A stretch of 64,000 bases of DNA from a bacterium (GCA_963669175.1 OY769902.1:4096001-4160000), one strand, 5' to 3'; positions 6,559 through 52,678 are shown, counted from the stretch's first letter. Numbers and translations are program-made. Notes: generated by a model from the letters alone, not told the origin.

Positions 6559-6600
6559 CCAAAGTGTAAAATAGCGCTGTTTTCTACAAAGGAGATCCTC

Positions 6601-7206: not shown

Positions 7207-7281
7207 GTCTTGCTTTTTACCTTGAGAAGTCGCTACGATGCCCGGACAGAACCTGTTCGGGCATCTTTTTGAGGGGAAATC

Positions 7282-21788: not shown

Positions 21789-21820
21789 TCTTATCACCTT
21801 TGTAAAGTGAACTACGGTAC

Positions 21821-26081: not shown

Positions 26082-26126
26082 GGGTATCACTGCTGTTTGG
26101 TTGCCCCTATTCCAACGCAAAACCCC

Positions 26127-26157
26127 TTCACCTGCCGCCTTGTCGGCGGCAGGTGAA
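26127..26157 (-). terminator. Intra-operon hairpin (terminator, attenuator or mRNA stabiliser)
   Basis: 13-bp perfect stem TTCACCTGCCGCC/GGCGGCAGGTGAA. Confidence 0.65.
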
Positions 26158-26192
26158 AAGGGAAAATATCGAAGAGTTGAATCTTCAGGATG

Positions 26193-28952: not shown

Positions 28953-29119
28953 TTTTTCCTTCCTCCGTCTTTGTTGAATGAGTATCCTATGAAACTCTGA
29001 AGACCGGCTCGTGCAAAGGAACCGTGCCATGTTGTCTGTATGGGGATATCAATTGCCCTGAGCGCCCCACTTCGCTCAGAACGGTAAAATGCTTCCTGTT
29101 TTGTTAACAAAAGATTGAA

Positions 29120-34569: not shown

Positions 34570-34631
34570 CTCACAGACGAGAATTCCGTTACAGGATTGG
34601 GTTATTTAACCGAAAGGGAACTTCCCGCTCC

Positions 34632-35861: not shown

Positions 35862-35883
35862 TAACTTGAACACACGAGCTACC

Positions 35884-37419
35884 ATGTACAACTTTAAAAG
35901 ACATACAGCCGTATTTGTCCTGTTATTGCCGATACTGCTTGGTATGAGCAGCACGGGCATATCCCAGGGACAGGACACGCTGTTTATTGATCTGCGAATG
36001 GCGCTGGAACTTGCCTGGGAAGGCGCCCCGGATATGATATACAGTCAGCTCAACGACGAGTCTGCCCTGCTGAACATGAAGCTGGCCAAGGCCAATTATT
36101 ACTTCCCGCGGCTGGACATGAACCTTCAGACGCCTTCGCTGGAAGAAACCCAGACAGAAGCATCCGTCTATGATGCCACTGTGGGCGAGAATGTTTATAA
36201 ATGGTCCAGCACAAAATCACGCATGTGGTATGGTAACCTGGCGTTGTCACAACCTCTTCCGACTGGCGGTGACCTCAGCCTGGTGTCAACTTTTTATGAG
36301 AACTTCCGTAAAGACCAGTACGCAGATGATGAAACCCTTCGGAGCATGGCCTACAGGCTGGAGGTATCGCAGGATTTCCTGAACGGGAACCAGAGAAAAC
36401 GTGTCTACGACCGTGCCAAGCTCAGCTACGATCGAACCCGCTGGGGGTCCAGCCGTTCACGTCGCCAACTGGCCTACCAGATATTGCAGGCGTATTATTC
36501 TTTGCTGACCAGCCAGCGTTCACTCGAGATTTCCAGCGATGACCTGGAAGCCTCGAGTGAAATGGCGCAACTGGCAAGAAACAAGTATGAAGCCGGGCTG
36601 ATCCCTGAATCGGAAGCGCTGCAACTGGAAGTGGAAGTCCTTGAAAAAGAAGCCACTCTTGCTACAGAGGTCTCTACTCTGGCAACCAGCCTGGAAGCAT
36701 TCCGTATCACACTCGGGCTTGATCTGGACCGTCCTCTCAAGGTTATCGGCGCCCCCCAGTTCAATTCAATCTCAATTGACCTGGATAACTCTGTGGCGCT
36801 GGCGTTGGCAGAACGAGAGGATCTTCGTCAGCATGAGATCAATGTCGATCTGGCTGAATTTGATCTGAAAGACGCCAAACGTGACTATGGTCCCAGCGGC
36901 TCTATCAGCGCTTTTTACTACCTGGACAGACGTGAAGATCAGGAATGGAACGCCTTACTTAATACACCCCTGGGAGATTACCAGGTAAATCGAGGGGTTA
37001 CAGTAAGTTTTGCGGTTCCGATCTGGACTGCGGGCAGACGTAGCGCTGCCGTGCAAATGGCGAAAGTCGAATTGCGCCGAAGCCAGTTTGAAGAGGAAGA
37101 ATACAAACGCTCGATCATACTGGATGTCAGAAAATCCGTCCGTGAGATCGAAGAAGCCGAACGAAGGTATCAGACAAGCCTGCGCGCGCTGGAGCTGGCC
37201 GAGGTGTCCTATGGCCAGATGAAAGACCGGTTTGAGAACGGACAGGTGAGCGCCCGCGAATGGAGTGAATCCCAACTTGCCTTGAAACGTAGCAGAATCA
37301 ATGCTTTGAATGCTTTGATTGACCACTTGATGGCTGTTGCCGGGTTCCGTCTGGCGACCGGTCAGGATGTTGTTCCGTGGCAATCCGAAATGTCTGTTTC
37401 CCCACTTTCAGGGGATTGA
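35884..37419 (+). CDS. TolC family outer-membrane efflux protein
   Basis: Signal peptide; AYYSLL, KYEAGLI, VPIWTAG, RFENGQVS; third gene of the adaptor-permease operon. Confidence 0.88.
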   Translation: MYNFKRHTAVFVLLLPILLGMSSTGISQGQDTLFIDLRMALELAWEGAPDMIYSQLNDESALLNMKLAKANYYFPRLDMNLQTPSLEETQTEASVYDATVGENVYKWSSTKSRMWYGNLALSQPLPTGGDLSLVSTFYENFRKDQYADDETLRSMAYRLEVSQDFLNGNQRKRVYDRAKLSYDRTRWGSSRSRRQLAYQILQAYYSLLTSQRSLEISSDDLEASSEMAQLARNKYEAGLIPESEALQLEVEVLEKEATLATEVSTLATSLEAFRITLGLDLDRPLKVIGAPQFNSISIDLDNSVALALAEREDLRQHEINVDLAEFDLKDAKRDYGPSGSISAFYYLDRREDQEWNALLNTPLGDYQVNRGVTVSFAVPIWTAGRRSAAVQMAKVELRRSQFEEEEYKRSIILDVRKSVREIEEAERRYQTSLRALELAEVSYGQMKDRFENGQVSAREWSESQLALKRSRINALNALIDHLMAVAGFRLATGQDVVPWQSEMSVSPLSGD

Positions 37420-37540: not shown

Positions 37541-40500
37541 ATGTCGCAACGAAGTGCGTTAAAGAACGATTTAAGCAGGTATAAAAAGCTCGTAAAAAAA
37601 AATCCGCTGCTGTTTTCACGGGTTGCGGATATCGAGCTGAAGCTTGGACAGTACAAATCTGCTCGCAAACGCTTGGAAGATGGCCTGCGTTATCATCCCG
37701 ACCATTCGACGGGACGATTGCTGCTGGCCAAGGCGATGGAAAAAACCGGTTCACGTGAAGAGGCTATTGACGAACTGCGTACCCTGGTTAAACAGGAGCC
37801 AATGAATACCCGGGCAAGGCGTGAGTTTATCGCGGCCCTGACCGATTCCGGGCATACCGATGAATTACGACGCCAGATGTTCCAGCTTTACCAGATTGAT
37901 CCGGAAGACAAACAGAGTCGTAAAGGGCTTCGAACCCTGATCCTGGCAAAAGTCCGGGAAAAACACCCCAATATTCACGATTGGCCGGAAGAGTGGCTGC
38001 TTGCGGATTTTACCCGTGAAGGCGCGTTGGCCAAACGTGTAGCTCGTGACATGAACCTCGCAGAGGAACGCCCCTGCCCCCCGGACGATGTGGTTCCCGC
38101 GCTGGAAGACACCGATATCATCGATACCAAGGATGAATTGCGCAGACTGGGCGAACCGCTTGATCAACCATCTGTGGCAGCCCCGAAAAAACAACCTGAC
38201 ACTCCTGAAACTGCTGTTGAGGTCAGCCAGGAAGACCTCGATGAAACCATGCATGGCGAACTTAATACTCCAGAAGAATGGCAGCTCGATAAACAGGAAG
38301 CTACCGGTACGGTAACAACCGAACCGGTTGAAGAAATTGGTGACGAGGCGACGGAAGCAGATGAGGATGATTCCGCCCTTGCTGCATTGCAGGCGGATAT
38401 GGCGGCAATGCAGTTCGATCAGGAAAAACATGCTGCACCAACAGAAATGAAAGATGAAACACTAGTGGGAGATGAAGCTTCAACTGTTGCCACCTTTGAT
38501 GTGGAGCCGTTGCCGGATGACACCGAAGCGGAAGCGGGAATGATGGCTGAACCTGCGGATGAAACGGTTCTGGAAGCTGAAACAAGTGTTGATGAAGAAG
38601 TAACAACCATTGAAGAACCTGGCATTCCGACAGAAGAGGCTGACGACACATCGCTGGAAGATGAAGAAACGGATGAAACTGAAGACGAGGAACAAGAGGA
38701 AGAGGAAGAGGAAGAGGAAGAAGAGGAATATAACCCGGTCAAGGAAGCGCTAAGAGCTGCCGGACTTGAACCGAAAAATTATGTAGACGTTAAGAAGTTG
38801 CTTGCTTTGACTGAGCAGGAAGAACCGTCATTAATCCAGAAACCTTCCATAAAGAAGGCTGCCAAACGCCAGAAACCAGCCCCGACAGAAGAAAAACCGG
38901 TAGATGACGCTGAGGCCGCAACTGCCCCGGTTCAGTTGCCCGCAGATCAAGAGCAGAAATCGGCCGCAGAAGATAAAGCTGGCGATGAGTCAGGAAAAAC
39001 TGCACCGGCTGAAACGGATGCCGCAACGCAGCCGGAAGAACAGACACCTCAGGTAGAAATTGATGACCTGGACACCTCATTCTCGAAATCGGATATTGAC
39101 TCGATGTTTAAGGAAGCTGGCATTACAAGCAAAGAAGAACTTCAACAGATGCAAAAAGAAGAACACGAAGAATTGAAACAAGAGGATTCAAGCGAAACCA
39201 TCGAGCCGGGTGATATAGAAGAAGAGAAACCGGAAGAGCCTGCTCCTGCCGATGTCCCGGAAGCAACAGATACTGAATCCGCTGATTTCAACCAGGCGGA
39301 TCTGAATGCACTGTTTGATCAAAAACAGGATGATGAGGATAGCAGCTCCTTCAGCCAGGACGATATCAACGCGCTTCTGAAAGGTGGCGCATCGAAACCC
39401 GAACCCGCGCCCGAACCGGAAGAGGAACCCGCCCCATCCGCAGGCGGAGGATCGTTCAGCCAGGACGATATTGACGCACTCCTGAAAGGCGGCGCATCGA
39501 AACCCGAACCCGAGCCGGAACCTGAGCCCGAACCGGAAGAAGAACCTGAACCGTCAGCAGGTGGCGGCTCCTTCAGCCAGGATGATATCGACGCGCTTCT
39601 GAAAGGCGGCGCTTCCAAACCGGCCCCCGAACCCGAACCGGAAGAAGAACCTGAACCGTCAGCAGGTGGCGGCTCCTTCAGCCAGGACGATATTGACGCA
39701 CTCCTGAAAGGTGGCGCATCGAAACCCGCGCCCGAACCGGAAGAAGAACCAGAACCGTCAGCAGGTGGCGGCTCCTTCAGCCAGGATGATATCGACGCGC
39801 TTCTGAAAGGCGGCGCTTCCAAACCGGCCCCCGAACCCGAACCGGAAGAAGAACCAGAACCGTCAGCAGGTGGCGGCTCCTTCAGCCAGGATGATATCGA
39901 CGCGCTTCTGAAAGGCGGCGCATCGAAACCGGAACCCGAGCCAGAACCCGAGCCTGAACCGGAAGAGGAACCCGCCCCGTCAGCAGGTGGCGGTTCCTTC
40001 AGCCAGGACGATATCGACGCGCTTCTGAAAGGCGGCGCATCGAGACCGGAACCGGAGCCAGAACCTGAAGAGGAACCCGCCCCATCAACAGGTGGCGGTT
40101 CCTTCAGCCAGGATGATATTGATGCACTCCTGAAAGGTGGCGCATCGAAACCCGAACCCGAACCGGAAGAGGAACCCGCCCCATCCGCAGGCGGAGGATC
40201 GTTCAGCCAGGATGATATTGACGCACTCCTGAAAGGCGGCGCATCGAAACCGGAATCCGAGCCCGAACCGGAAGAGGAACCGGCCCCGTCAGGAGGTGGT
40301 GGTTCGTTCAGCCAGGATGATATTGACGCACTCCTGAAAGGTGGCGCATCGAAACCGGAACCCGAGCCCGAACCGGAAGAGGAACCGGCCCCATCCGCAG
40401 GCGGAGGATCGTTCAGCCAGGATGATATTGACGCACTCCTGAAAGGCGGCGCATCGAAGCCAGAGCCAGAAGAAAATGAAATGTCCCAAGCCGCTGCACG

Positions 40501-41593
40501 TACGCTTCAGGAATTGGACGCGAACGATGACTTTGATTTCGAAATCGGGTTCAGCCAGGATGACCTTGATGAATTGATTCAGGCCAAGAAAGAAATGGAT
40601 CGAAAGCCGGCAGCGCCTCCTTCACTTGGTCAGAAGGGGCCGCTAGGTCAGGATGACATCTCGGCCCTGTTTGCCAACCGAAGCCAGGTAAAAACTGAAG
40701 AGCCTCTGGCTGAACAGAAAGCAGAAAAACCTGTCGAAGATATCCCCGTTGAAGCAGTCGGTAACACAGGCAAGCCATTCAACCAGGACGATATTTCTGC
40801 ACTCTTCAGCCAGGTGAAGGAAAAAGGACAGGAAGCACACGAAGAGTTGGTGGAAGAATCGCTGGAAGACGAGCAACCGACTTCAGTTGCAGATATCATG
40901 AACGCCGCGCCGGATGAATCCCCAGTGGAAATGGCGGCCAGTGAGGCTGAAGCAATCGAAACTGAGACTGATAAAGTTGTACCAGTTGAAGAAGAAGAAG
41001 AAGTAGCAGCCGAAACGCCTGAAGCAGATGAAGCTCAGGAAATTGCAGCTTCGGAAGACATGCCTGTATCGCCATCAAAAACAACCCTGTTCAACCAGGA
41101 TGATATCAACTCCCTGCTTCGTGACATGGGCAGTATTCGTAGATCCGGTCCCAAACCGACTATTTCGCAAACCTTGTCCCAACCTCCCGCTGAACCGGAA
41201 ATACCGGAAGAAGCTGCGGAAGAAGTTGAATTGGCCGCAGAGCCGGTTATTGAGAAAGCTGCCGCCCAGAAAGATCCAGATGGCAGGTTTGACCTTGATC
41301 AATGGTTCCATTCCAAGCAGGATGATCAGGAAGCCGGCCCGACGCCCGAGAAGCCTTTGCCCAAACCGGCAAAGCCCCAGCCCCCTGTTGGGCAAGCGGG
41401 GACAAGCGCGCGCAAGGCCGTATTGCGTGGACCGGTCACAAAGACATTTGCGCGCCTGTTGTTGAAACAGGGCCACTCAGACCTTGCCTCTATCATTGCA
41501 CACCGGTTGTATTTGTTGAACCCGGAAGACCCGGAAGTGATTGATCTCCTGGCCGAGTCCATCTCCGGTATGGAAGAACCGGACGTCGAGTAG
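37541..41593 (+). CDS. TPR protein with long acidic disordered region carrying arrayed FliM-N-like peptides
   Basis: N-terminal TPRs; Glu/Pro-rich centre with 11 tandem FSQDDI(D/N)ALLKGG units; C-terminal TPR-like TKTFARLLLKQGH; GGAGG RBS; no signal peptide or TM helix. Confidence 0.85.
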   Translation: MSQRSALKNDLSRYKKLVKKNPLLFSRVADIELKLGQYKSARKRLEDGLRYHPDHSTGRLLLAKAMEKTGSREEAIDELRTLVKQEPMNTRARREFIAALTDSGHTDELRRQMFQLYQIDPEDKQSRKGLRTLILAKVREKHPNIHDWPEEWLLADFTREGALAKRVARDMNLAEERPCPPDDVVPALEDTDIIDTKDELRRLGEPLDQPSVAAPKKQPDTPETAVEVSQEDLDETMHGELNTPEEWQLDKQEATGTVTTEPVEEIGDEATEADEDDSALAALQADMAAMQFDQEKHAAPTEMKDETLVGDEASTVATFDVEPLPDDTEAEAGMMAEPADETVLEAETSVDEEVTTIEEPGIPTEEADDTSLEDEETDETEDEEQEEEEEEEEEEEYNPVKEALRAAGLEPKNYVDVKKLLALTEQEEPSLIQKPSIKKAAKRQKPAPTEEKPVDDAEAATAPVQLPADQEQKSAAEDKAGDESGKTAPAETDAATQPEEQTPQVEIDDLDTSFSKSDIDSMFKEAGITSKEELQQMQKEEHEELKQEDSSETIEPGDIEEEKPEEPAPADVPEATDTESADFNQADLNALFDQKQDDEDSSSFSQDDINALLKGGASKPEPAPEPEEEPAPSAGGGSFSQDDIDALLKGGASKPEPEPEPEPEPEEEPEPSAGGGSFSQDDIDALLKGGASKPAPEPEPEEEPEPSAGGGSFSQDDIDALLKGGASKPAPEPEEEPEPSAGGGSFSQDDIDALLKGGASKPAPEPEPEEEPEPSAGGGSFSQDDIDALLKGGASKPEPEPEPEPEPEEEPAPSAGGGSFSQDDIDALLKGGASRPEPEPEPEEEPAPSTGGGSFSQDDIDALLKGGASKPEPEPEEEPAPSAGGGSFSQDDIDALLKGGASKPESEPEPEEEPAPSGGGGSFSQDDIDALLKGGASKPEPEPEPEEEPAPSAGGGSFSQDDIDALLKGGASKPEPEENEMSQAAARTLQELDANDDFDFEIGFSQDDLDELIQAKKEMDRKPAAPPSLGQKGPLGQDDISALFANRSQVKTEEPLAEQKAEKPVEDIPVEAVGNTGKPFNQDDISALFSQVKEKGQEAHEELVEESLEDEQPTSVADIMNAAPDESPVEMAASEAEAIETETDKVVPVEEEEEVAAETPEADEAQEIAASEDMPVSPSKTTLFNQDDINSLLRDMGSIRRSGPKPTISQTLSQPPAEPEIPEEAAEEVELAAEPVIEKAAAQKDPDGRFDLDQWFHSKQDDQEAGPTPEKPLPKPAKPQPPVGQAGTSARKAVLRGPVTKTFARLLLKQGHSDLASIIAHRLYLLNPEDPEVIDLLAESISGMEEPDVE
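39347..40470 (+). repeat. Coding tandem repeat, 11 units of about 99-117 bp
   Basis: TTCAGCCAGGA(C/T)GATAT recurs 11 times; units differ by the number of PE dipeptides. Confidence 0.95.
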
Positions 41594-41612
41594 AACGGGG
41601 AGAAATTCCGTT

Positions 41613-42218
41613 GTGAAGACACTTCCTGCGATTGGTCTGACAGGTAATATCGGATGTGGAAAATCAACCGTAGCTGCTGTCTGGCAGGAGCTGGGCGCAA
41701 CGATCATCGACGCTGACCAGGTTGGACGTGATGTTGTTGCTTTCGAGACTGAATACCTGGACTGGCTGAAAGATCGGTTTGGGACGAGTATATTCTCCGG
41801 TGACGCACTGAATCGTGCCGTACTGGGCCGAATTGTCTTTTCTGATAAGCAAGCGCGAGATGATATGAATCATCACATCTGGCCTTTTATCAGCCAACGC
41901 CTATCCGACGCTATAACATCAGCCCGATCCGGTGAACAAATTCCTGTAGTCGATGCTGCCTTGATTTTTGAATGGCAGGACGCATCGCGTTATGACGAAA
42001 TTGTCGTTGTAACTTGCGATGTTGATCAGGCCATTGCGCGTGCAGCCATACGAATGAATCTTACCGTCGATGAGATGCGGGACCGTTCCAGGAGCCAGAT
42101 TTCACAGGAGGAAAAAGCGGCTCGTGCGCACTACGTTTTGCAGAATACCGGAACGCTAAGAGAATTGAAAGAAAAAGCGGCACATTATTGGCATGATTGT
42201 GTCGCGCGTTTTTCTTGA
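41613..42218 (+). CDS. coaE: Dephospho-CoA kinase
   Basis: IGLTGNIGCGKSTV, IIDAD, LNRAVLGRIVF, DAALIFE; GTG start with GGGGAG RBS. Confidence 0.95.
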   Translation: MKTLPAIGLTGNIGCGKSTVAAVWQELGATIIDADQVGRDVVAFETEYLDWLKDRFGTSIFSGDALNRAVLGRIVFSDKQARDDMNHHIWPFISQRLSDAITSARSGEQIPVVDAALIFEWQDASRYDEIVVVTCDVDQAIARAAIRMNLTVDEMRDRSRSQISQEEKAARAHYVLQNTGTLRELKEKAAHYWHDCVARFS

Positions 42219-42284
42219 GAAATTCTGACAAACCTGGTTTTGGTCTCTCAGGTTGCCATGCCAGGTTATTTGGAGGGGAAACAG

Positions 42285-43871
42285 GTGCGGGGTTTACAAC
42301 GTCTTGCAATTATCCTGATGCTATGTGCTGTATTTGTTTCAGTGCAGGCTCAGACCGACGGTGATCCTCAGGATCAACGGGAAGATGCTACCGCCCCACC
42401 GCCGCAAATTGCCGGGGAGCTGGAGCTGGAGAAGGCCCTGTCGGAGCGGCTTGAAGAGATGCTTCAGCCACTGGTCGGACCAACGGTGGTCATGGTGGAC
42501 ATCACCCTCGGTGAGGTGCCCGTTGAATTGCAGGGGTACATTTACAGCCAGTCTCGCAGTCTGCCGGGATTACCGGTTTCAGTGAGTGAAGATGTTCGCA
42601 GAATGCAGGAATCCGGCTGGTATTTCAGTGAGATATCCAAAACCATTATTCATGTATTTGTTTCGGGATCCATGTCGGAACGTGAGATTGAACGTATACA
42701 CGAACTGATCCCGATCTGGATTTCTATCAATTCCAGTCGCGGTGACCAGATTATTATTGAACGATCACCATTCATCAATCCCCCGTTGACCCTTATTCAG
42801 TATCTATACTCGAAGCGAGGGTTGTGGACCGCAATCCTTATCCTTGCAGGCCTGATTGTGCTTGCCGGAGTTGTCTACTCCGCGATTTCCAGGTTTTCGC
42901 GCTACCGTATGGTGGAATCACCTGTCGGCCATGAGCAGGAAGGCGGCGGCGCTAGCATGTCCACCACAGACCTCGCCAAATTGTTGGGAATGGCAATGGG
43001 CGGTGGCAGCGGTGCTGGTGGTGTTGGCGGAACCGCGCCCGGCGGTGGCGTTGGCGGCGGGTCCGGCGGCGTTGGCGGCGGCGGTATTGGCGGCGGCGCT
43101 GGCGGTGCTGGTGGCGTTGGCGGAGGCGCTGGTAGCGATGCTGCGATATTGAGTCTGCCTGATGGTGAGATTCCCATCCGAATTGTGCGCGACAAGGAAT
43201 CAGAGGGGAAAAACCGTGGTGTTCTGGCAAAAGTAGCCAACATGAACGCACTTAGCCTCCTCAAATTGATCGAAGGAGAGAGCCCTGACTTTGCAGCGCT
43301 GGCGTTAACCTCGGCCAAGCCTGACATTGCCGGTAAAATTATTGGTGAACTACCGGAACAACAGAGAAAAGAGATCCTGGCTTATTGGGATATCCTGGAG
43401 AAAAACGATGCGGACAAGATCAACCAGATGGTTGAGCGTATCCGCAAGAAGCATACAACAGTCAGCTCTGTAGCCATTTCTCTTGGCGATGGGACCGCGA
43501 AGCTTTCGAACATCATCAACGCTCTGCCTGATCGTGAAGCGCAGGAACTTTACGCCAGCCTGACCAATGCTGATCCCGCCCTGGCAAAGCGTGTGCGCAA
43601 GAGTGTATTCTTCCTCAGCGACTTGATGAACCTGGAAGAGGCCACACTGAAACGTGTTGTTCTGCGTCTCCCGAACCCGACGCTCGCAGCTCTGATATCT
43701 ACTGCTTCAGATGATGTAAAGAATGTCGTATTCGCTTGTCTGTCACGACGGGCGATCAACATGGTGTCTGAGGAAATGGCCATGCGTCGTTCCAAGTCAC
43801 GTGACCGCATAGCCGAAGCAAAACGCACCTTCCTGGATACGTTGCAGCAGGTGCAGGAAACCAGTTTGTGA
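42285..43871 (+). CDS. FliF(RBM3)-like periplasmic domain, TM helix, Gly-rich linker and FliG middle/C-terminal domains in one fusion protein
   Basis: Signal peptide (VQA|Q). FliF-like LEEMLQPLVGP and INSSRGDQIIIERSPF. FliG-like ESPD, DPALAKRVRKSVFFLSDL and LSRRAINMVSEEM. GGAGG 8 nt before GTG 42285. Confidence 0.8.
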   Translation: MRGLQRLAIILMLCAVFVSVQAQTDGDPQDQREDATAPPPQIAGELELEKALSERLEEMLQPLVGPTVVMVDITLGEVPVELQGYIYSQSRSLPGLPVSVSEDVRRMQESGWYFSEISKTIIHVFVSGSMSEREIERIHELIPIWISINSSRGDQIIIERSPFINPPLTLIQYLYSKRGLWTAILILAGLIVLAGVVYSAISRFSRYRMVESPVGHEQEGGGASMSTTDLAKLLGMAMGGGSGAGGVGGTAPGGGVGGGSGGVGGGGIGGGAGGAGGVGGGAGSDAAILSLPDGEIPIRIVRDKESEGKNRGVLAKVANMNALSLLKLIEGESPDFAALALTSAKPDIAGKIIGELPEQQRKEILAYWDILEKNDADKINQMVERIRKKHTTVSSVAISLGDGTAKLSNIINALPDREAQELYASLTNADPALAKRVRKSVFFLSDLMNLEEATLKRVVLRLPNPTLAALISTASDDVKNVVFACLSRRAINMVSEEMAMRRSKSRDRIAEAKRTFLDTLQQVQETSL

Positions 43872-43881
43872 GGAAACGAGC

Positions 43882-44637
43882 ATGAAGCTTACATCTTTGT
43901 TTGGTCTGCTCATGGGCCTCGGACTGGTATTCGTTGCAATCATTTCCCGTGGCAGTCTGCTGCAGTTTATCAGTATTGAGTCCATCTTTATTGTGCTGGG
44001 TGGCACTGTCGGCGCCACTCTGCTGTCCTTCAACCGGGATCAGCTTGAAATTGCAATCCGCGCAATTCGTGTCGTCTTCTTCGATACCACTCCCCCACCG
44101 GATAACCTGATCCCGATTATGGTGGACCTGGTAAAACAGGCGCGTGTGAATGGTGTTGGTTCATTGGAAGTTCCTGAAGGCGAGGGCGAACGAAATGAGT
44201 TCCTCCACAAAGCAGTGGACATGCTGATTGACGGTATTGAACCGAGTGTCGCCGCTCAGATTTTGCAGGGCGAATCGGACGCTATCGCATCACGCTATCG
44301 TATGAGCGAGCGACTGTTCACAGTCATGGGCACATATACCCCTCTGTTCGGATTGTTGGGCACAGTCATCGGTCTGATCATCATGCTTTCCAGCGTAAAT
44401 GATCCCATGGCTATCCCGGGCGCGATGGCGGTTGCCATGTTGACCACATTTTACGGCGTTCTGTTCAGCGCCATGATTTTCCGTCCCATGGCGACCAAGA
44501 TTCGCGCATGGAACTATGATGAAATCCAACTGCGTGACCTGATTATCGAAACCATGATGCACATTTCTGAAGGTGTCAACTCGCAGATTTCGCAGGAACG
44601 TCTGCAATCGCAGTACCGTACCCGGAGGCGTGGCTAA
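43882..44637 (+). CDS. motA: Stator A subunit (MotA/PomA/MotP family)
   Basis: IVLGGTVGA; ARVNGVGSLE (conserved Arg/Glu); PLFGLLGTVIGLI; AMAVAMLTTFYG. Confidence 0.93.
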   Translation: MKLTSLFGLLMGLGLVFVAIISRGSLLQFISIESIFIVLGGTVGATLLSFNRDQLEIAIRAIRVVFFDTTPPPDNLIPIMVDLVKQARVNGVGSLEVPEGEGERNEFLHKAVDMLIDGIEPSVAAQILQGESDAIASRYRMSERLFTVMGTYTPLFGLLGTVIGLIIMLSSVNDPMAIPGAMAVAMLTTFYGVLFSAMIFRPMATKIRAWNYDEIQLRDLIIETMMHISEGVNSQISQERLQSQYRTRRRG

Positions 44638-45338
44638 TGGCAGGCCCTCGTCGCTGGAATCCCAAGAGAAGACGGGTCATCGAACCGGAACATGAAGGTG
44701 AACCCTGGCTGACCACGTATGGCGACCTGATGACGTTGCTGCTGGTGTTCTTTGTCCTGTTCTACATCTTTTCCGTAACGGGGCAAATGCCTTTCCTGAA
44801 AGAAGCGTTTGAACGCTTCCAGATGAAATCGGAAGCGCCCGCCGCACTTGACGCACAGGAATTTGAACAGATCGAGGAAGCCGGTGGTGAAATCGTCATT
44901 TCAATCCCTTCCAACGTCCTGTTTGACCTGGGACAAGCTGATATCAAACGGGAAGCGATGTATGTTTTGCAGGATGCGGTAAAACAGATCAAAGATCATT
45001 TGATAGATGCGCCACATGCGCAGATACGTGTGGAAGGCTACACCGACAACCTGCCGATCCATAATTACCAGTTCCGTTCCAATTGGGAACTCTCGGCTGC
45101 TCGTGCTATTGCTGTGGTTAAATACCTGATTGAAATTGAAGGATTTAAGCCCGAGCGTTTGCAGGCTATGGGGTATGGTGAGTACAACCCTGTCGTTCCG
45201 AATGATACCGCGGAAAACCGTCAGAAGAACCGTCGTGTTGAAATCAAGATTGTCAAATCTCCCGTTGACCAGAGCTTTGACGAGCTTTCCACGGGCGCAC
45301 CTTCTGGATTCCCATCGCAACAGGCGAGGAACGAATGA
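44637..45338 (+). CDS. motB: Stator B subunit (MotB/PomB/MotS family) with OmpA-like peptidoglycan-binding domain
   Basis: WLTTYGDLMTLLLVFF; VEGYTDN.PI; SNWELSAARA; NRRVEI; TAATG overlap with motA. Confidence 0.95.
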   Translation: MAGPRRWNPKRRRVIEPEHEGEPWLTTYGDLMTLLLVFFVLFYIFSVTGQMPFLKEAFERFQMKSEAPAALDAQEFEQIEEAGGEIVISIPSNVLFDLGQADIKREAMYVLQDAVKQIKDHLIDAPHAQIRVEGYTDNLPIHNYQFRSNWELSAARAIAVVKYLIEIEGFKPERLQAMGYGEYNPVVPNDTAENRQKNRRVEIKIVKSPVDQSFDELSTGAPSGFPSQQARNE

Positions 45339-48300
45339 AGCGGGTACGCTGGCATCTTTTCCTGTTGCTTTTTCTTCCGCTCTGCACGTTTGCTCAGAGC
45401 CGGATTGATCTCTCCCCCTGGCCGGGAAACATGGCCTGGTTTGGTGAAGGCACCCAGCGTGTCGGTGTCGCCATCGCCTCCGGTGATATGAATGGCGACG
45501 GTCTCTGGGATGTGGCCATTTCAGCGCCGGGCACAAGAAACAACTCCGGTGATGTATATGTATTCCTGGGCGATGGAGTCACGTTCGATTCAGTTCGTTT
45601 TGATAATCCCGCTGCAGAAGCCAACCTTGTCATAGAGGGTACTGCCGGGTTACAGATCGGTGTCAAGCTGGTGATGGGTGATCTGAACGGTGACGGACGT
45701 GACGATCTGGTCATCGGCGCGCCCCATGCCGACGACAGTCGCGGACGAGTCTGGGTTATCTTCGGCAGCGCATCTCCTTCCGGGACGGTTACTGAACCGG
45801 ATGTTGAAATCTTCGGCAGTGCGGACGGCGATCACTGTGGACGCGCCATTGGTATTACCAACATCGGTGACGATGCCTACAACGACATTGTCATCGGCTC
45901 CCCCAATGCAGACCCTCGCCAGCGAGACAGCGCGGGACGTGTTGATGTTATCGCCGGACGGGCTTCCTGGCCGGAAAACATATCCCTTTCTACACAGGCA
46001 TCGACTGTAACCGTATTTGGCGGCCAGACCGGTGAACAACTGGGTGAAGCCATCAGCGTCTGCCCCATTTTCCAGGGGACATTACTGGGCAACAACCTTA
46101 ACGGCGACGGGTATGGCGACCTGATTATCGGCGCTCCGGGACGAACCTACGCAGGGCGTACTGGCGCTGGCGCTGTCCATATTTTCGTCACCCCGGAAAG
46201 CCTGGCAGATACGGTAGACCTTACCACTGACAACGTCCCACTTCTGCAAGACTACCGTCAGCTCGGCGGCGCACAGACCCTGGATCTGACCGGCCGCGCT
46301 ATCGCTTCGTTTAACACAACGGGAATTCGTGGTGTCCTGATCGGCGCTCCGGCAGCGTTGCAGGACGGAGTGCGTGGCGGCGCTTTTTATTATATCACCT
46401 GGGATGAGATCAACACGGCCGCTCCTTGGGCAGATCTTCGGCAGGCAACCTACTTCCGGGTGAAATTTACCGGCGCGGCGGAGGATGATTCACTCGGCGC
46501 AGCGGTTGCAGGTATTGATGAGCTGATGATGGCGGCAGCGCCCGGGGCGAATTACCGGGCACGGGAAGAAGCCGGGCAGGTGGTTGCGATAACCGACAAC
46601 CCGATTCTGACAGGCATAATCCGTGTCGATACCCTTGACGCCAATGTCCGTCACTTTTTCGGTGCCGGTGCGGGCCATGACCTCGGTCGCTCACTGACCA
46701 TTGCTGATCTCGATGACGATGGCATCTTTGATCCCATCATGGGATCACACTCCCATACAGACTATGCCGGGGCTGTTCACGCCGTACGTGGCGGGCTGCC
46801 CTATTTCTTCAACATTTACCCGGCGCCGGGACAGGGAAATATTCCCAGCGAAGATACCCTGTCTTTCCGCATCAGTGATGATGAAACAGGAATTGCGACA
46901 GCCAGTTTTATCATGATCCTGGATGGCATCACGTACAACATTAACCATCCTGGTGTCAGCTACGAGATGAACGACGGGATCTATTCCTTTGAGCTGGTCC
47001 CGGAAGAACCCTTTGATATCAATGTTCCGATCAACGTGATCACCCATATCACAGACACACAGGGTAACCGTTCACCGCTCTGGTATTACCAGTTCATCAC
47101 CGGTCAGGATGTCACTGCGCCGTATCCCACTCAATTCTCCCCCGCACCGGGCGAAGTAAATGTCGCGACCACACGTGACATCGCCTTCAGTCTGCGTGAT
47201 GCCGGAGATGGTGTTGACAGCACGACAATCATGGTCGTGATTGATACGGATACGGTCCGCCAGGGCGATCCAGAGATGAGAATCAGCGGTTCCATTTCCA
47301 ATTACCGTGTCGTGATCAATCCCGAGTCTTCCTTGCCGCCAGACGCACAGATTGACGTACGAATTGAAGCGGCTGACCTTACGGAGCCATCCCCCAATTG
47401 GATGACACCGTACGATTATTTCTTCTTTACCTCACTAGATACAATTCCGCCGGAACTGGTTTTCATTTACCCGGAACCGGGCGTAACGATTGATGTCGGA
47501 ACCAAAATCAATTTCAGAATCATTGATACCGGATCAGGGGTAAATGCAGATTCTACCAAAATCCTTCGCACTCAGCAAAGTGGTGAAGAATACGGCGATC
47601 TGTTATTCGAAGCCATCTCACAGGGATACGCGTTCGTTCATAATCCTGAGAATAATCCCTATGATTCCGGGCTGTTGCAACTGACGGCACAATCACGTGA
47701 CCTGGCTGATGATCCCAATATCATGGAGGATTCAACCTGGTCCTATAATGTCATTGTGGATAACCGTGCGCCTGAACTGACTGAAGCGATACCGCACCCG
47801 GATAGTGTGGGATCAGCACGAAACACGCCGATTACCCTGACCATCATGGATAACGCGGCGGGGATCGACTCCACCACCTTGCAACTCGAAATTGATAATG
47901 TCTTTATCGCCCATCGCAATATCATCTGGGAACGCATCGAGCATCTTGGTTACCGGATTACCTACCAGCGTTCAGAAGGCATATACGGCGACAGTGTGAT
48001 CGTCCACCTGAACGTGTTTGACAAAACAATCCCGGACGGTATCGAACTGGATACCACATATATTTTCTATCCCGAGAACGATGATGAGCCGCCTTATTTC
48101 CTACTGGTTGATCCGCCGCAGGGATCGGAAGGTGTATCTGTGGAAGATTCCCTGATATGGGAAGCCGCGGACGACATGACCGGAATCGACCCATCCAGCG
48201 CCTACATCTCGATCAACAATGCGGACCATTCCGTACTGTTGCGATACAATACCCACCCTGTCACCCAGGGCGCACAATACAGGTTCGTCTATACTCCGCC

Positions 48301-50005
48301 GTTATCGCTGCCTTATGAGGATACGGTCAGTGTCCGCTTCGGCATCAGTGATAACGAGGAACCGTCCAATGACGCGATCCTCGTGTATGAGCTGTTTACC
48401 GAGCCGGATGAATACCCGCCCTACCTGACCAATTTGAGCCCGTATCCGGGACAGATCGGCGTATCTCGTGGCGCGGATATCGTGTTCCATGTTCTGGACG
48501 CCGGGGTTGGTGTGGCGCGTGATTCGCTGCATCTCGCCATTGATGGAATCGCCGTAGCCAATGAGAACATCTACTGGGAAGAGGTTGAACAGGGATATGC
48601 TTTCCGTTACAATCCGCCTGGTCTGTTCGGTCATACGGATACAGTGCATGTATCCGTGACCTGCTATGACCTGGCAACCTCACACAACCGTATGGATGAA
48701 TCTTACTGGTTTGTCACGCTCCGAGATGACCGTGAACCTCCCTACATGGAAGAGGAACAACCGGCTGATTCTTCCGGAGGTGTATCACCAGATATTATCC
48801 TCAGTTTCGACCTGAAGGATGACGGCGAAGGTGTCGATACCAGCTATACTACAATCCAGAACATGGACGATCCCCTCTGGATAGCGACACGTGAAGTAAC
48901 ACCTATCATCAACGGTTTCCACTATGTGCTGGCCCCGGCAACCGATTTCCTGTACAGCGATACGGTGACGATCGGCGTGAACGCTCGTGATCTTGCAGAA
49001 CCGGCGAATGTGACACCGAATCCGTTGACATTCTCTTTCTACACCCAGTTGGATGACGCTTCCCCCTTCTTTACCGAGCTGCAACCTGCGCCGGACTCTA
49101 GTATTACCTATAACCGTCCAGTCAGCTTTGAAGTTATCGATATGCTCGCCGGGGTTGACACATCCGATGTCCACATCTTCATTGATTCGGAAGAAATCAC
49201 GAATAACAGTGACGATTACGAAATCCTTATCGAGGAAACAGCCGACGGCTGGCGGTATACCTATACGCCGTACGATGGTTGGAATGTGAGCACAACCTAT
49301 TCTGTGACGCTTTCCGCTGCCGACTATTCCAATATTCGCAACGAGATCGATTCAACCTACCAGTTTGAGGTCATTCCTGACCTGGTCGCGCCGTATGTAA
49401 ATAGTTTTGCGATTGTCCGACTGGTTAACGATACTCTTGCTGTGGTTGACAGCACCAGCATCACCCTTGACGATTACCTCTATTTCGAAGTGCTGGATGA
49501 CGGCATCGGGGTAGATGCGAATTCGATCCGTCTCGAACTGGGCGGACGTAACGCCCCGGAACCAGTTCTTACCCAGGAGCTGGAAACCGGTTACTATCGT
49601 GTGTACCGATTGAGCGACTGGAATTCTGTCGGTCCACAGTACCTATTCCCCGGCCAGCAGGTGCAGGCATATATCAGCGCTCGCGACCTGTCGGTTCCGG
49701 AAAACACGCTGACTCGTGACAAGCATACGTTCTATATTCCACCTCCCGATGTGGAGCTGCTGGTCATTCCAACGACCATTACTCCGAACGGTGACGGTGT
49801 CTGGGATGAAGCGCTGATCTATCATAAGGGATCTTCATCGGCTTCCGTGGATTTCTTCGACATGCGCGGGCGTAAAGTTGCTACAGTCCAGGGCAACCCG
49901 GCAAGCTGGAACGGCAACGATGACAGCGGCGAACCCGTACCGGGTGGATTATACATCTTCCAGGTCAGCGGCGGTGGCCAGGGCACAATTGCGGTGGCAC
50001 GATGA
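45335..50005 (+). CDS. Giant secreted FG-GAP (integrin-alpha-like propeller) and Ig-repeat protein with type-B-like T9SS CTD
   Basis: Signal peptide; GD.NGDG..D..IGAP repeats; nine D..PP...P.PG...D.G.GVD Ig-like modules; CTD IPTTITPNGDGVWD...FDMRGRKV...WNG...GLYIFQV; ATGA overlap with motB. Confidence 0.85.
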   Translation: MKRVRWHLFLLLFLPLCTFAQSRIDLSPWPGNMAWFGEGTQRVGVAIASGDMNGDGLWDVAISAPGTRNNSGDVYVFLGDGVTFDSVRFDNPAAEANLVIEGTAGLQIGVKLVMGDLNGDGRDDLVIGAPHADDSRGRVWVIFGSASPSGTVTEPDVEIFGSADGDHCGRAIGITNIGDDAYNDIVIGSPNADPRQRDSAGRVDVIAGRASWPENISLSTQASTVTVFGGQTGEQLGEAISVCPIFQGTLLGNNLNGDGYGDLIIGAPGRTYAGRTGAGAVHIFVTPESLADTVDLTTDNVPLLQDYRQLGGAQTLDLTGRAIASFNTTGIRGVLIGAPAALQDGVRGGAFYYITWDEINTAAPWADLRQATYFRVKFTGAAEDDSLGAAVAGIDELMMAAAPGANYRAREEAGQVVAITDNPILTGIIRVDTLDANVRHFFGAGAGHDLGRSLTIADLDDDGIFDPIMGSHSHTDYAGAVHAVRGGLPYFFNIYPAPGQGNIPSEDTLSFRISDDETGIATASFIMILDGITYNINHPGVSYEMNDGIYSFELVPEEPFDINVPINVITHITDTQGNRSPLWYYQFITGQDVTAPYPTQFSPAPGEVNVATTRDIAFSLRDAGDGVDSTTIMVVIDTDTVRQGDPEMRISGSISNYRVVINPESSLPPDAQIDVRIEAADLTEPSPNWMTPYDYFFFTSLDTIPPELVFIYPEPGVTIDVGTKINFRIIDTGSGVNADSTKILRTQQSGEEYGDLLFEAISQGYAFVHNPENNPYDSGLLQLTAQSRDLADDPNIMEDSTWSYNVIVDNRAPELTEAIPHPDSVGSARNTPITLTIMDNAAGIDSTTLQLEIDNVFIAHRNIIWERIEHLGYRITYQRSEGIYGDSVIVHLNVFDKTIPDGIELDTTYIFYPENDDEPPYFLLVDPPQGSEGVSVEDSLIWEAADDMTGIDPSSAYISINNADHSVLLRYNTHPVTQGAQYRFVYTPPLSLPYEDTVSVRFGISDNEEPSNDAILVYELFTEPDEYPPYLTNLSPYPGQIGVSRGADIVFHVLDAGVGVARDSLHLAIDGIAVANENIYWEEVEQGYAFRYNPPGLFGHTDTVHVSVTCYDLATSHNRMDESYWFVTLRDDREPPYMEEEQPADSSGGVSPDIILSFDLKDDGEGVDTSYTTIQNMDDPLWIATREVTPIINGFHYVLAPATDFLYSDTVTIGVNARDLAEPANVTPNPLTFSFYTQLDDASPFFTELQPAPDSSITYNRPVSFEVIDMLAGVDTSDVHIFIDSEEITNNSDDYEILIEETADGWRYTYTPYDGWNVSTTYSVTLSAADYSNIRNEIDSTYQFEVIPDLVAPYVNSFAIVRLVNDTLAVVDSTSITLDDYLYFEVLDDGIGVDANSIRLELGGRNAPEPVLTQELETGYYRVYRLSDWNSVGPQYLFPGQQVQAYISARDLSVPENTLTRDKHTFYIPPPDVELLVIPTTITPNGDGVWDEALIYHKGSSSASVDFFDMRGRKVATVQGNPASWNGNDDSGEPVPGGLYIFQVSGGGQGTIAVAR

Positions 50006-51453
50006 GAAGGCGTGGATTATCAAGAGGCCTGCAAGTCCTGATCAGCGTTTCACTGCTGGTTCTGCTGTTCTCCGCCCTGCCGACTCATGCGGCGTTTGAA
50101 GTGCTTCCGGGTAAACGTGCAACCGCGCTAGGCGGCGCTGTAGTGGCATCCGGCGGCGATCCGATGGGCTTCTACATCAATCCAGCCTCGATTGCCTGGG
50201 GCACAGTCACCTCGGTTGAAACCTTCTACATGAAGCCATTCTGGGGACTCGACGGCGATGCGCTGTCACGTTCGGCGATAAGCGGTTACGGCAGCCTCGG
50301 CGACTGGGGCGCTATCGCGCTTGGTTATGACCAGTTCGGCAGCGATCTATATAGTGAAAACCGTACGCTGTTGAGCTATGCCCGTAAACTCACGATGTAC
50401 GAACGCATGTTCACCGTGGGCGTTTCGCTTGAATTCCTGGGCCGCAAATATGCCGAGACAGAATATACCGCCATCGACCCGCTGTTCATTGAATATGGCT
50501 ATTCCAAGCGTTCTGTAGGTATCGACATCGGCATGCAGATGCGCCTGACCTCACGTATGACTGCGGGGCTGGCAATCCGTCGTATCAACAAACCGAACCA
50601 GGCGCTGGAAGACGGTGTGGATGATCCGCTGCCCCGTGAAATCCAGGCGGGTGTATCCATGCGCTTCACCCGTTTCATGCTGTATACGGATATTGAGTAC
50701 CGCGACCGTTCGCTCAACGGTGCAGACGTTTCGCCTCGACTGGGCGTAGAATTTCCGCTGTTCAACAATGCGCTGCACTTGCGTGGCGGCGGCAACCGAG
50801 ACGAAGTTGCGCTTGGCTTCGGGCTGAATATCTGGAAACACGACAGCGAAAAGAGCTACATGAGCAGTGCGGATGAGTCCGGCGCTCGTGAACGCAGGCG
50901 CGATATCAAAAACGCCACTTTGCGTGTCGGGTATACGTTCCGCTTCCCTATCGGAGGTGTGAGCGGCACTATCGGCCACCATATGCTGGGTATCGATTTT
51001 TACTTCGAACGGAAGCGTACGGTAATGGAACGGGTGCGTCAACCGCGTCCGGTCCAGGTGCCCCAGATTATCGTGGAAACGGATACGGTGCTGGTCGAGA
51101 AACCGGTGCTGGTGCATGAATTCGTTGAAGACACCAGCAAGGTGGAACTGCTCGAGGCCCGGATCACCGACCTTGAATCACAGCTTTCCCAACTGGTAAA
51201 CATGAACACGGCCATCCGTGAAGTGGAAATCGCTCAACGCCTGTTCTTGCAGAAAAACTACCAGGAAGCCCTGAATGCCTGCGACCGTGCCACCCGCCTC
51301 GTCCCCACACTGGCCCTCGCCTGGGTACAGAAAGGCTCGATCTACTACGCTATGGGACGCTACGGCGATGCCCGGACCGCGTGGAACCGAAGCCTGCGCC
51401 TCGATCCGAAACGGGATGATGTGAGGCAGTATTTGAAGCAGTTGCCGGAGTAA
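50002..51453 (+). CDS. PorP/SprF- or PorV-like outer-membrane barrel with C-terminal coiled coil and TPRs
   Basis: RATALGGAVVA...YINPA; GLAIRRINKPN; amphipathic strands; C-terminal TPRs (AWVQKGSIYYAMG); ATGA overlap with the upstream gene. Confidence 0.75.
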   Translation: MRRRGLSRGLQVLISVSLLVLLFSALPTHAAFEVLPGKRATALGGAVVASGGDPMGFYINPASIAWGTVTSVETFYMKPFWGLDGDALSRSAISGYGSLGDWGAIALGYDQFGSDLYSENRTLLSYARKLTMYERMFTVGVSLEFLGRKYAETEYTAIDPLFIEYGYSKRSVGIDIGMQMRLTSRMTAGLAIRRINKPNQALEDGVDDPLPREIQAGVSMRFTRFMLYTDIEYRDRSLNGADVSPRLGVEFPLFNNALHLRGGGNRDEVALGFGLNIWKHDSEKSYMSSADESGARERRRDIKNATLRVGYTFRFPIGGVSGTIGHHMLGIDFYFERKRTVMERVRQPRPVQVPQIIVETDTVLVEKPVLVHEFVEDTSKVELLEARITDLESQLSQLVNMNTAIREVEIAQRLFLQKNYQEALNACDRATRLVPTLALAWVQKGSIYYAMGRYGDARTAWNRSLRLDPKRDDVRQYLKQLPE

Positions 51454-51545: not shown

Positions 51546-52256
51546 ATGTGTCCAGTAGTCCACAGAAACCTTGGGATGTATACTGTAAGCGAAATACAAC
51601 GGCTTACAGGAGTACATTATAATGCCCTATATTACTGGATTCGTGGATATACTCGTAATGATATTAAAGTCGCTCAACCAGTTATTTTGCCTCAATATGA
51701 TATCCTTGAAGATAAATATCTACTTGGATTTTACAACCTTATTGAAATTCGAATAGTCAAGAAATTGCGAGAATTGGGAGTATCGCTAGATGCGATAAGA
51801 ACAGCAAATAAAAAAGCACAAGATTATTTTAAAATTCCTCATCCTTTTGCAAGTGAGAAAATTAAGATTAAAACGGACATGAGATCAATTTTTGTTGATG
51901 CCGGAGAAGAAGAAGAAGATAACATTTTGCTAAATTTAGTTAGCGATGAATATAATATGGGAACAATAATTAAAACTTATCTACGCGACATTGATGTTAA
52001 TGCAGAGAAAATGGCAAGCAAATGGTGGCCTTTATCAAAAGAAAAGACAATTGTTTTAGACCCAAATTTCAATAATGGGAAACCAATAGTAGCTAAGCAT
52101 CTTGTTCCTACAGAGGTTCTTTACAATGTTTACCAAGCCGAGGGCGCTAATGAAGACGCAGCTGAATTTGTAGCTGATTTATATCGTGTATCGCTGAAAA
52201 ATATGCTACATACTATTGAATTTGAGGAATCTTTCACCAGGAGAAAGGCTTCGTGA
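51546..52256 (+). CDS. Putative antitoxin, HTH plus DUF433 (VapB45-like)
   Basis: N-terminal HTH (YTVSEIQRLTGV...YYWIRG); F.NLIEIR; IVLDP.FNNGKPIV; AT-rich; GGAGG RBS. Confidence 0.75.
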   Translation: MCPVVHRNLGMYTVSEIQRLTGVHYNALYYWIRGYTRNDIKVAQPVILPQYDILEDKYLLGFYNLIEIRIVKKLRELGVSLDAIRTANKKAQDYFKIPHPFASEKIKIKTDMRSIFVDAGEEEEDNILLNLVSDEYNMGTIIKTYLRDIDVNAEKMASKWWPLSKEKTIVLDPNFNNGKPIVAKHLVPTEVLYNVYQAEGANEDAAEFVADLYRVSLKNMLHTIEFEESFTRRKAS

Positions 52257-52678
52257 AAATATTTCTTGATAAACACATTCCTATATCCTATTGCGAGTGT
52301 ATTAAAAAGTCATTTCAAATGAAGGGGTATTTCGTTTATCATTATACGGAGATGTTTGTATCAAGCGAGCGTGATGATGATGATTGGCTGCTACATCTTT
52401 CGCAGGAAGGTGATTGGATTGCAATTACAGCCGATTTAAATATTTATCGGACACCTCATAGAAAGCGATACTGGAAAGAAGCAAATGTTCAGACTTTCTT
52501 TTTACCGAAGGGCTATACTGGTTTAGGATCGATGTTCATGCTTACTAATTTAATGTGTTGGATCAATAAAATTATCAAAATTGCTGAAAATAAAAATTCT
52601 GAGAGAGGCTACTACATAACGAAGCATGGCGTTTTTTACAATATTAATACTGTCACAAAACGGAATGCTCCCAGATAA
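52253..52678 (+). CDS. PIN-like toxin (VapC45-like)
   Basis: MKIFLD..I, DDDWL, WIAITAD.NI; GTGA overlap with the upstream gene. Confidence 0.75.
   Translation: MKIFLDKHIPISYCECIKKSFQMKGYFVYHYTEMFVSSERDDDDWLLHLSQEGDWIAITADLNIYRTPHRKRYWKEANVQTFFLPKGYTGLGSMFMLTNLMCWINKIIKIAENKNSERGYYITKHGVFYNINTVTKRNAPR

Follow-up and report, generated by a model that had tools for sequence, protein, structure and literature searches.

Flagellar-type rotor and stator genes encoded together with a predicted type IX secretion adhesin and an outer-membrane barrel: a candidate rotary device

Can the torque-generating core of a flagellum be put to work on a different surface structure? A bacterial locus in GCA_963669175.1 raises this question. 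The window analysed here is a stretch of 64,000 nucleotides (OY769902.1:4096001-4160000; G000:C1:4096001-4160000 in our numbering) inside a single 5.45-Mb contig, GC 0.50. An initial annotation had placed seven co-directional genes at window positions 37541-51453, and had read them as a flagellum-derived rotor and stator coupled to a type IX secretion system (T9SS) adhesin and to a PorP/SprF-like barrel. The coordinates of the open reading frames (ORFs) confirm this run of seven. Five of the genes, tightly packed on the + strand at 42240-51453, make up the module, or cassette, with which we are concerned:

42240-43871, + strand: rotor protein, 543 aa (Pfam FliG_C 1.9e-20, 73.6 bits, residues 440-540; FliG_M 1.5e-6, 28.8 bits)
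43882-44637, + strand: MotA/PomA-type stator A subunit, 251 aa (Pfam MotA_ExbB 1.4e-21)
44637-45338, + strand: MotB-type stator B subunit, 233 aa (MotB_plug 9.1e-14, 51.2 bits; OmpA 3.8e-21, 75.7 bits)
45335-50005, + strand: adhesin, 1556 aa (FG-GAP 5.2e-26; Big_5 7.5e-13; CHU_C 1.1e-7, 32.3 bits, cut-off 27)
50002-51453, + strand: barrel, 483 aa (Pfam PorP_SprF 3.2e-7, 30.6 bits, cut-off 22.3; C-terminal tetratricopeptide repeats, TPRs)

Stop and start codons overlap across the last four genes, as had been described, by 1 nt (motA/motB), 4 nt (motB/adhesin) and 4 nt (adhesin/barrel). The composition proposed for the locus, a linked set of rotor, stator, adhesin and barrel, is supported, and we found no publication on such a set. 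The 64 kb likewise hold no further flagellar genes: Pfam scans of the window ORFs, covering 37 of 38 non-overlapping large ORFs (the one at 3653-4057 was left out; 11 of the 37 had no match at the thresholds used), gave no other flagellar domain. We regard the best reading of the module, with a probability of roughly 0.5, as a rotary device in which a flagellum-derived rotor and stator are coupled to the T9SS adhesin and its barrel.

The rotor protein is the most unusual member of the set. Counted from a TTG codon it has 543 aa; the database copy, which begins at M7, has 537 aa. A signal peptide or first transmembrane (TM) segment (residues ~22-38) is followed by a periplasmic domain resembling FliF RBM3 and the β-collar (~55-180, the whole periplasmic part comprising ~150 residues), a TM segment (192-223), a Gly-rich linker, and the middle and C-terminal domains of FliG (~329-541). 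All structure models of the rotor are of monomers. The model of the whole protein (pLDDT 60.5, N-terminal half poor) was set aside in favor of a model of the N-domain, which was built on 39 homologues, has a pLDDT of 85.2 and adopts an α-β-β-α-β fold with an inserted β (hairpin) region. This domain has no PDB match by sequence alone. In a Foldseek search of the PDB with the model, the top 17 matches are FliF RBM3/collar (S-ring) structures (E 6e-8 to 1e-5, probability 1.0), the best being 7bk0_B (E 6e-8); an integrative FliF model, PrgK and SpoIIIAG come next. In a PDB sequence search the rotor-family profile matches the middle and C-terminal domains of T. maritima FliG (FliG-MC, 1lkv) at 3e-34. 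The fliG model TIGR00207 matches the rotor at 2.1e-22 (80 bits, below the cut-off of 226.7) over model positions 112-323 only, and the rotor is 24% identical to the genome's own FliG. Because the N-domain matches RBM3/collar by structure and the C-terminal half matches FliG-MC by sequence, the rotor represents a naturally occurring minimal FliF(RBM3)-FliG(M,C) fusion.

The FliF-FliG fusion of the initial annotation is therefore real, with its FliF part cut down to RBM3/collar and TM only. RBM1 and RBM2 are missing, in that Pfam YscJ_FliF (PF01514) has no match in the rotor and finds only the canonical FliF genome-wide. FliG_N is not at its proper position by Pfam, which gives only a weak match inside the C domain, and the two-TM full-length architecture of the FliF/MS-ring family (about 530-560 aa) is absent. 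The torque helix of FliG is well preserved: R504, E511 and E512 are invariant in 6/6 close relatives, and the equivalent positions are invariant in 10/10 sequences spanning both subfamilies. To our knowledge, and in the literature that we found, no FliG-MotA torque interface has been described outside flagella. The EHPQR motif, which we take to be the FliM-binding motif of FliG, is not conserved in the rotor. In a pairwise alignment ESPD lies opposite EHPQ of the genome's own FliG, with Trp at the later Arg position. W383 is invariant in the four sequences of one alignment, and relatives vary at the positions of this motif.

Best NCBIfam matches of the cassette MotA are PomA (1.1e-53, 182 bits versus a cut-off of 341) and MotP (1.3e-52), both below the equivalog cut-offs, and its best PDB matches are C. 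sporogenes MotA (8ucs/6ysf, 4e-38) and Vibrio PomA (1e-37). The cassette proteins are 36% (MotA, over the full length) and 35% (MotB) identical to the flagellar MotA and MotB of the same genome. MotB carries the TM Asp, the plug and an OmpA-like peptidoglycan-binding domain; the channel Asp is kept in 10/10 aligned cassette MotBs and the OmpA-like domain in eight of the ten. The domain is missing from the MotB of locus L061 (9579-10001), whose end looks LysM-like by eye, and from that of locus L050 (9490-10029), which has a short, unrelated end. A MotA tree of 39 rows, for which the comparison set was picked by hand and the three ExbB/TolQ-like paralogues of the genome served as root, groups the 15 cassette MotAs in a single clade (ultrafast bootstrap, UFBoot, 99; SH-like approximate likelihood ratio test, SH-aLRT, 99.9). 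Cassette MotA is placed inside the MotA radiation, with the three paralogues as outgroup, and the genome's flagellar MotA falls in a separate clade with proteins named motility protein A (SH-aLRT 96, quick tree). Judged by its sequence, the cassette stator is of flagellar type (MotAB/PomAB, the 'FIT' class of PMC12505986). According to the accessible part of the same paper, R90 and E98 of E. coli MotA face FliG. Mapped by spacing and by alignment to 8ucs, this Arg and Glu, 8 residues apart, are both kept in 4/4 cassette MotAs of the window's family.

The remaining two genes encode predicted surface components. The adhesin starts with a signal peptide and integrin-like FG-GAP repeats; many Ig-like domains of the Big_5 type follow in a long series, and a TPNGDG motif can be read in the C-terminal domain. 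TIGR04131 matches it at 7.8e-5 (22.7 bits, below the cut-off of 35). CHU_C, which scores 32.3-36 bits against a cut-off of 27, was detected in eight of ten cassette adhesin C-termini tested, six of them above the Pfam cut-off. The adhesin is thus predicted to bear a type-B C-terminal sorting domain. The barrel (residues ~30-335) is of the PorP/SprF-PorV-FadL kind and continues into a presumably periplasmic tail composed of a DTV-repeat linker, a coiled-coil-like stretch and TPRs (~400-483). Among 17 barrel homologues, PorP_SprF is found in eight, PorV in eight, Toluene_X (FadL-like) in five and TPRs in all 17; the DTV-repeat linker is also common to all, and Cys427 of the tail is invariant (17/17). 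In L050 the linker of the barrel (5380-7311) is expanded by many extra DTV repeats, giving 644 aa versus ~480, as though the tether could be adjusted in length.

Do the five genes belong together? The proposal had been made to depend on whether their linkage holds in relatives, and it does: rotor, MotA, MotB, adhesin and barrel occur in that order in 8/8 family loci with flanking sequence (the window, L019-L023, L047 and L048), a result that does not refute the proposal. L045 is a 3-kb contig with the rotor gene only. A word-indexed search with the rotor protein returned only four clusters, and a pattern scan of species genomes five loci. A profile search with the N-domain found the cassette in 9/79 genomes of the phylum, all in the window's own family. 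The genes upstream of the cassette in L048 are unrelated and divergent. In three cassette-less relatives (G028, G029 and G039), the flanking genes are kept and exactly the five genes are gone.

The linkage also extends beyond the family, to distant low-GC lineages in which the five genes again occur together, in two gene orders. An exhaustive N-domain profile search gave 69 representatives, nine of them at E <= 1e-30. A scan of 59 more distant N-domain relatives found FliG_C in 46, FliG_M in 31, YscJ_FliF_C in 15 and YscJ_FliF in four, so that the profile reaches true FliF proteins as well. Named entries among 20 rotor-family clusters looked up are proteins of metagenome-assembled genomes (MAGs) labelled Cloacimonadota (three), KSB1 (one) and Omnitrophota (one). 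The accessible part of PMC8542988 says nothing of flagella in its Cloacimonadota MAGs, a silence that cannot be taken to mean that they have none. A metagenome scan yielded 16 low-GC cassette loci (GC 0.31-0.38), whose cassette proteins are 20-30% identical to those of the window. MotA follows the rotor gene in 12/12 of these loci with flanking sequence, and an adhesin homologue is present in eight. In 12/16 the rotor gene has the barrel-TPR gene immediately upstream; in L058 the barrel follows the adhesin, as in the window, and in L057, L063 and L064 the locus is cut or the position of the barrel undeterminable. All-against-all BLAST of flanking ORFs found no gene beyond the five that is common to the divergent groups.

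The other two genes of the original run are:

37541-41593, + strand: TPR/FliM-N-repeat protein, 1350 aa (Pfam TPR repeats), neighbour, not core
41541-42218, + strand: CoaE (Pfam CoaE 1.2e-45), neighbour, not core

The first is a presumably cytoplasmic protein with N-terminal TPRs, acidic stretches and 15 FliM-N-like motifs of the SQDDIDALL type, most of which come from 10.5 tandem copies of a 105-nt repeat at 39345-40458. A search of every six-frame ORF in the genome finds 11 copies of the strict motif in this protein and, apart from these, only the one at residue 6 of canonical FliM. The protein may be a multivalent binder or sink of CheY-P, where the CheY-binding role of such motifs is one that we assume from FliM biology. 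Its homologues have one to eight motif-like sites and those in cassette-less relatives zero to two, with no clean correlation between motif number and cassette presence. The repeats had thus been correctly described, but membership in the module does not stand, since the gene is kept in cassette-less G028, G029 and G039; it is also absent beside the cassette in L048 and the low-GC loci. Nor did coaE survive as a module member. It is found by genome search in the same three relatives (and called as an ORF in G029 and G039), and it is missing beside the cassette in L048 and the low-GC loci. Both genes are ruled out as core machine parts, because they persist without the cassette and are absent beside it elsewhere. 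The five-gene unit is discrete, and these two are neighbours only, because cassette-less relatives keep both and lack the five.

Further upstream, before the TPR protein, lie HlyD-like, MacB-like and TolC-like efflux genes (33259-37419, + strand). Their synteny is shared by four family cassette loci (L020-L022, and L047 for TolC). Of the three cassette-less relatives, two (G028 and G029) also show it, and only these keep MacB and TolC. Just 3' of the cassette (51546-52678, + strand), a gene for a 236-aa protein with a weak MerR-like match overlaps by 4 nt with one for a PIN_10-domain protein; this pair is kept downstream of the cassette only in the closest relative, L019.

Could motor genes and adhesin-barrel pair simply be neighbours by chance or inherited synteny, with no functional link? 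Synteny within the window's family does indeed reach beyond the five, to a block that takes in the efflux genes and coaE. Yet the five genes persist where the flanks have changed (L048), are lost as a block in cassette-less relatives, stay together in another order at 20-30% protein identity, and are joined by stop/start overlaps in the last four, so that we consider mere synteny extremely unlikely. That the module is real and conserved we hold to be very probable.

A further question posed with the initial annotation was whether the window holds the only fliF, fliG and motAB genes of the genome. It does not, which again does not refute the proposal: the same contig carries a canonical flagellar cluster at about 2.78-2.85 Mb, with the following members (contig coordinates; strand not given):

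2786133: FliF, canonical cluster
2787752: FliG, canonical cluster
2798952-2800476: MotA and MotB, canonical cluster
2810881: FlhA, canonical cluster

Canonical FliM begins with the N-terminal sequence SQDEIDALL, and Flagellin_N has eight matches genome-wide. FlhA is present in 15/16 genomes of the family, including 9/9 cassette-bearing genomes of the phylum. The module might accordingly be an accessory of the flagellum, supplying a second stator set and a FliG-like extra rotor subunit, brake or clutch, with adhesin and barrel as mere neighbours. Flagellar-type stators, the co-occurrence with FlhA in every carrier of the phylum and the upstream protein with its FliM-N-like motifs of the CheY-binding type would all suit this role. 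We nevertheless judge it improbable for several reasons: (i) The linkage to adhesin and barrel survives a change of gene order in distant lineages. (ii) Six flagellated relatives lack the cassette. (iii) The rotor has neither RBM1/RBM2 nor FliG_N, and carries ESPD and Trp in place of the presumed FliM-binding motif. (iv) The cassette MotAs are a clade of their own. (v) The upstream protein with FliM-N motifs occurs also without the cassette.

How, then, is the adhesin handled? The genome has a SprA_N match of 149.3 bits in a 2272-aa frame and at least 150 matches to Por_Secre_tail, the type-A C-terminal domain (340 candidates, 150 scored), and a T9SS translocon is present in the same genome. 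Upstream in the window, the - strand at 20700-29030 also encodes a PorV-like barrel (20700-21869), a TonB-dependent receptor with CarboxypepD_reg (21824-24589) and, at 26196-29030, a protein of 945 aa that bears a type-A T9SS sorting domain. SprA_N is found in 75/79 genomes of the phylum versus nine with the cassette, which rules out the cassette as a general T9SS motor. Since T9SS is general and the cassette rare, the cassette is an accessory module that presumably uses the ordinary T9SS for export.

As for the GldLM motor, TIGR03517 and PF12081 gave no match in the genome and TIGR03513 a best E of 0.02, with models that had no positive control: in control genomes no Gld model scored above its curated cut-off, and PF12081 and TIGR03513 gave sub-cut-off matches (E <= 1) in six and nine controls. 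The GldL model TIGR03513, whose sensitivity is unproven, matched 0/79 genomes of the phylum. By eye, no gldKLMN-like row was seen near the 11 FGE-sulfatase matches. Strong divergence of the Gld motor in this genome, or too narrow a scope of the models, would explain the lack of matches. GldLM was considered as the missing motor with nothing convincing from the three models, and because they had no positive control we do not claim its absence.

The module could also be an energy transducer of the Ton/Tol kind, in which ion flow powers export, folding, anchoring, release or turnover of the adhesin and no sustained movement results. The strict tie of the module to one cargo-barrel pair fits such a role, as does a long barrel tail that could receive force. 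The accessible part of PMC12505986 describes the stator relatives ExbBD and TolQR as energizing outer-membrane processes, and the general T9SS already in the genome (SprA and the many type-A domains) is in keeping with the idea. The parts that have been kept, however, are a kit for torque on a ring: FliG torque helix, RBM3/collar, MotB plug and peptidoglycan anchor. No TonB- or TolA-like extended arm is among them, and no such device is known to be needed by other type-B cargos. We rate this explanation as unlikely, though as one to be taken seriously.

Regulatory genes flank the cassette in some low-GC loci. Directly upstream of the rotor gene, L058 (3077-5802) encodes a hybrid histidine kinase of the composition PAS-HisKA-HATPase-REC-Hpt together with a CheY-like receiver of one domain, and homologues of both, assigned by homology only, occur in L057 (6807-7999; 77% and 61% identity). 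These neighbours hint at phosphorelay control. In L051 an MscS-like channel gene (12734-13636) follows motB with a stop/start overlap, and ~81%-identical ORFs are found in L052 and L054. One might suppose from the kinase and receiver, the channel gene and the FliM-N-like-motif protein upstream in the window that the module is a sensor of surface or load, in which the load that adhesin, barrel and tail place on the ring is reported, as a sign of attachment, through stator occupancy or ion flux to a CheY-like pathway and no movement is produced. Such regulatory neighbours are lineage-specific and lie outside the conserved five, and sensing has no need of a full torque-generating interface; we find this account very doubtful.

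An ESM Atlas look-up with rotor residues 40-230 gave clusters of ~500-aa proteins with FliG_C and YscJ_FliF_C, mostly from Elusimicrobiota (scores 0.78-0.79, a lead only), and MotAs labelled Elusimicrobiota stand near the base of the MotA tree. Lineages beyond the FCB group may have a rotor-stator pair of this kind with different outputs.

We return to the rotary device coupled to adhesin and barrel. In the mechanism that we propose, rotor proteins would form an inner-membrane ring of the FliF-RBM3 type, with one FliG unit per subunit, and MotA5B2 units anchored to peptidoglycan would turn this ring by ion flow. The ordinary T9SS would export the adhesin and the barrel would hold it. The periplasmic tail of the barrel would reach the periplasmic ring of the rotor, so that rotation could pass to the barrel-adhesin pair, which would be spun or dragged in the outer membrane, and the cell would in this way move on surfaces or actively handle attached particles. 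The stronger form of this proposal, that the module is an unrecognised ion-driven, envelope-spanning rotary machine which dispenses with type III export gate, rod, hook and C-ring and drives an adhesin through the tail of its barrel, we put forward tentatively.

Several observations weigh against the rotary reading: (i) How torque would cross the peptidoglycan with no rod is unexplained. (ii) With FlhA in all nine carriers of the phylum, independence from flagella is not established in this lineage. (iii) Among six low-GC cassette MotAs the Glu of the canonical pair is found in none and the Arg in three, so the classical MotA-FliG interface is not universal in the family. (iv) Cys427 of the barrel tail cannot pair with the rotor, because the periplasmic domain of the rotor, as read from the sequence, has no Cys; a disulfide of the SprF-GldK style between barrel tail and rotor is thereby ruled out. 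(v) The barrel scores below the NCBIfam cut-offs of ~90 (PorV_fam 42.3 bits, 6.9e-11; PorP_fam 40.5 bits, 2.2e-10), and a whole-genome search with PF11751 did not recover it, which indicates that this mode of search is less sensitive than hmmscan on the protein. A complex prediction with three RBM3 copies and the TPR tail of the barrel (score 0.13, mark 0.32) speaks neither for nor against binding.

Comparison with known systems shows where the module departs from each. Common to it and the flagellar motor core are an RBM3/collar-like fold, FliG-MC in which the Arg and acidic pair of the torque helix are conserved, flagellar-type MotA, and a MotB that has plug, channel Asp and OmpA-like anchor. 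Unlike that core, it combines rotor and switch protein in one polypeptide, has no genes for FliM/FliN, export gate, rod, hook or filament, is linked to a T9SS cargo and an outer-membrane barrel, and has stators in a clade separate from the flagellar MotA of the genome. Engineered or mutant FliF-FliG fusions (PDB 8z4d) also place an MS-ring protein and FliG on one chain, 1:1. On 8z4d, the rotor-family profile picks up the FliG part (8z4d_1, 1.1e-21) and the N-domain model the S-ring region. In contrast to 8z4d, with full-length FliF in a 945-aa chain and a complete flagellum, the rotor is natural, measures ~540 aa and comprises RBM3/collar, one TM segment and FliG-MC.

Bacteroidota gliding (SprB/SprF/GldLM) resembles the module in that the gene for a large, repetitive adhesin with a type-B C-terminal domain adjoins a PorP/SprF-like barrel gene, and an ion-driven motor of the 5:2 type is encoded with adhesin and barrel. 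The closest mechanistic precedent comes from the accessible part of PMC12635249, where the tail of SprF is covalently attached to the moving GldK track driven by GldLM; like SprF, whose C-tail couples to that track, the barrel of the module has a periplasmic C-terminal extension. The motor differs, being MotAB with a FliF/FliG-like ring rather than GldLM with GldKN. The barrel tail is a long linker with TPRs and a single invariant Cys, not a twin-Cys tail, and finds no Cys partner in the periplasmic domain of the rotor. The module is also rare in its phylum where SprA is nearly universal. Ion-driven stator-like units in non-flagellar use are familiar from ExbBD, TolQR, AglRQS and ZorAB (accessible part of PMC12505986), which are of the 'generic' class with no FliG partner, whereas the stator of the module is of the flagellar class and comes with a FliG-type rotor of its own. 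In the literature searched we found no description of the module. The accessible parts of PMC12505986, PMC12199754, PMC9324843, PMC8542988 and PMC11285876 contain none, and the supplements of the first two could list homologues. The accessible part of PMC12199754 does suggest that rotor proteins in genomes that have no filaments may have other functions.

If the rotary reading is true, the module represents a new use of the flagellar motor core, in which the torque interface and the MS-ring collar were kept and the axial and export parts dropped. It would be a second, independent way to power a surface adhesin, beside GldLM, and would mean that uncultured lineages of the FCB group move on surfaces or handle particles in a new way. 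These lineages are the phylum of the window, with Ca. Electryonea clarkiae as the nearest named record, and relatives that carry the labels Cloacimonadota and KSB1. Since its torque core (RBM3, FliG and MotAB) stands apart from the export apparatus, the module would also be informative as to whether flagellar rotation and secretion had separable origins. With only five genes, the module is a small and tractable system for the study of stator-rotor coupling and of force transmission across the envelope.

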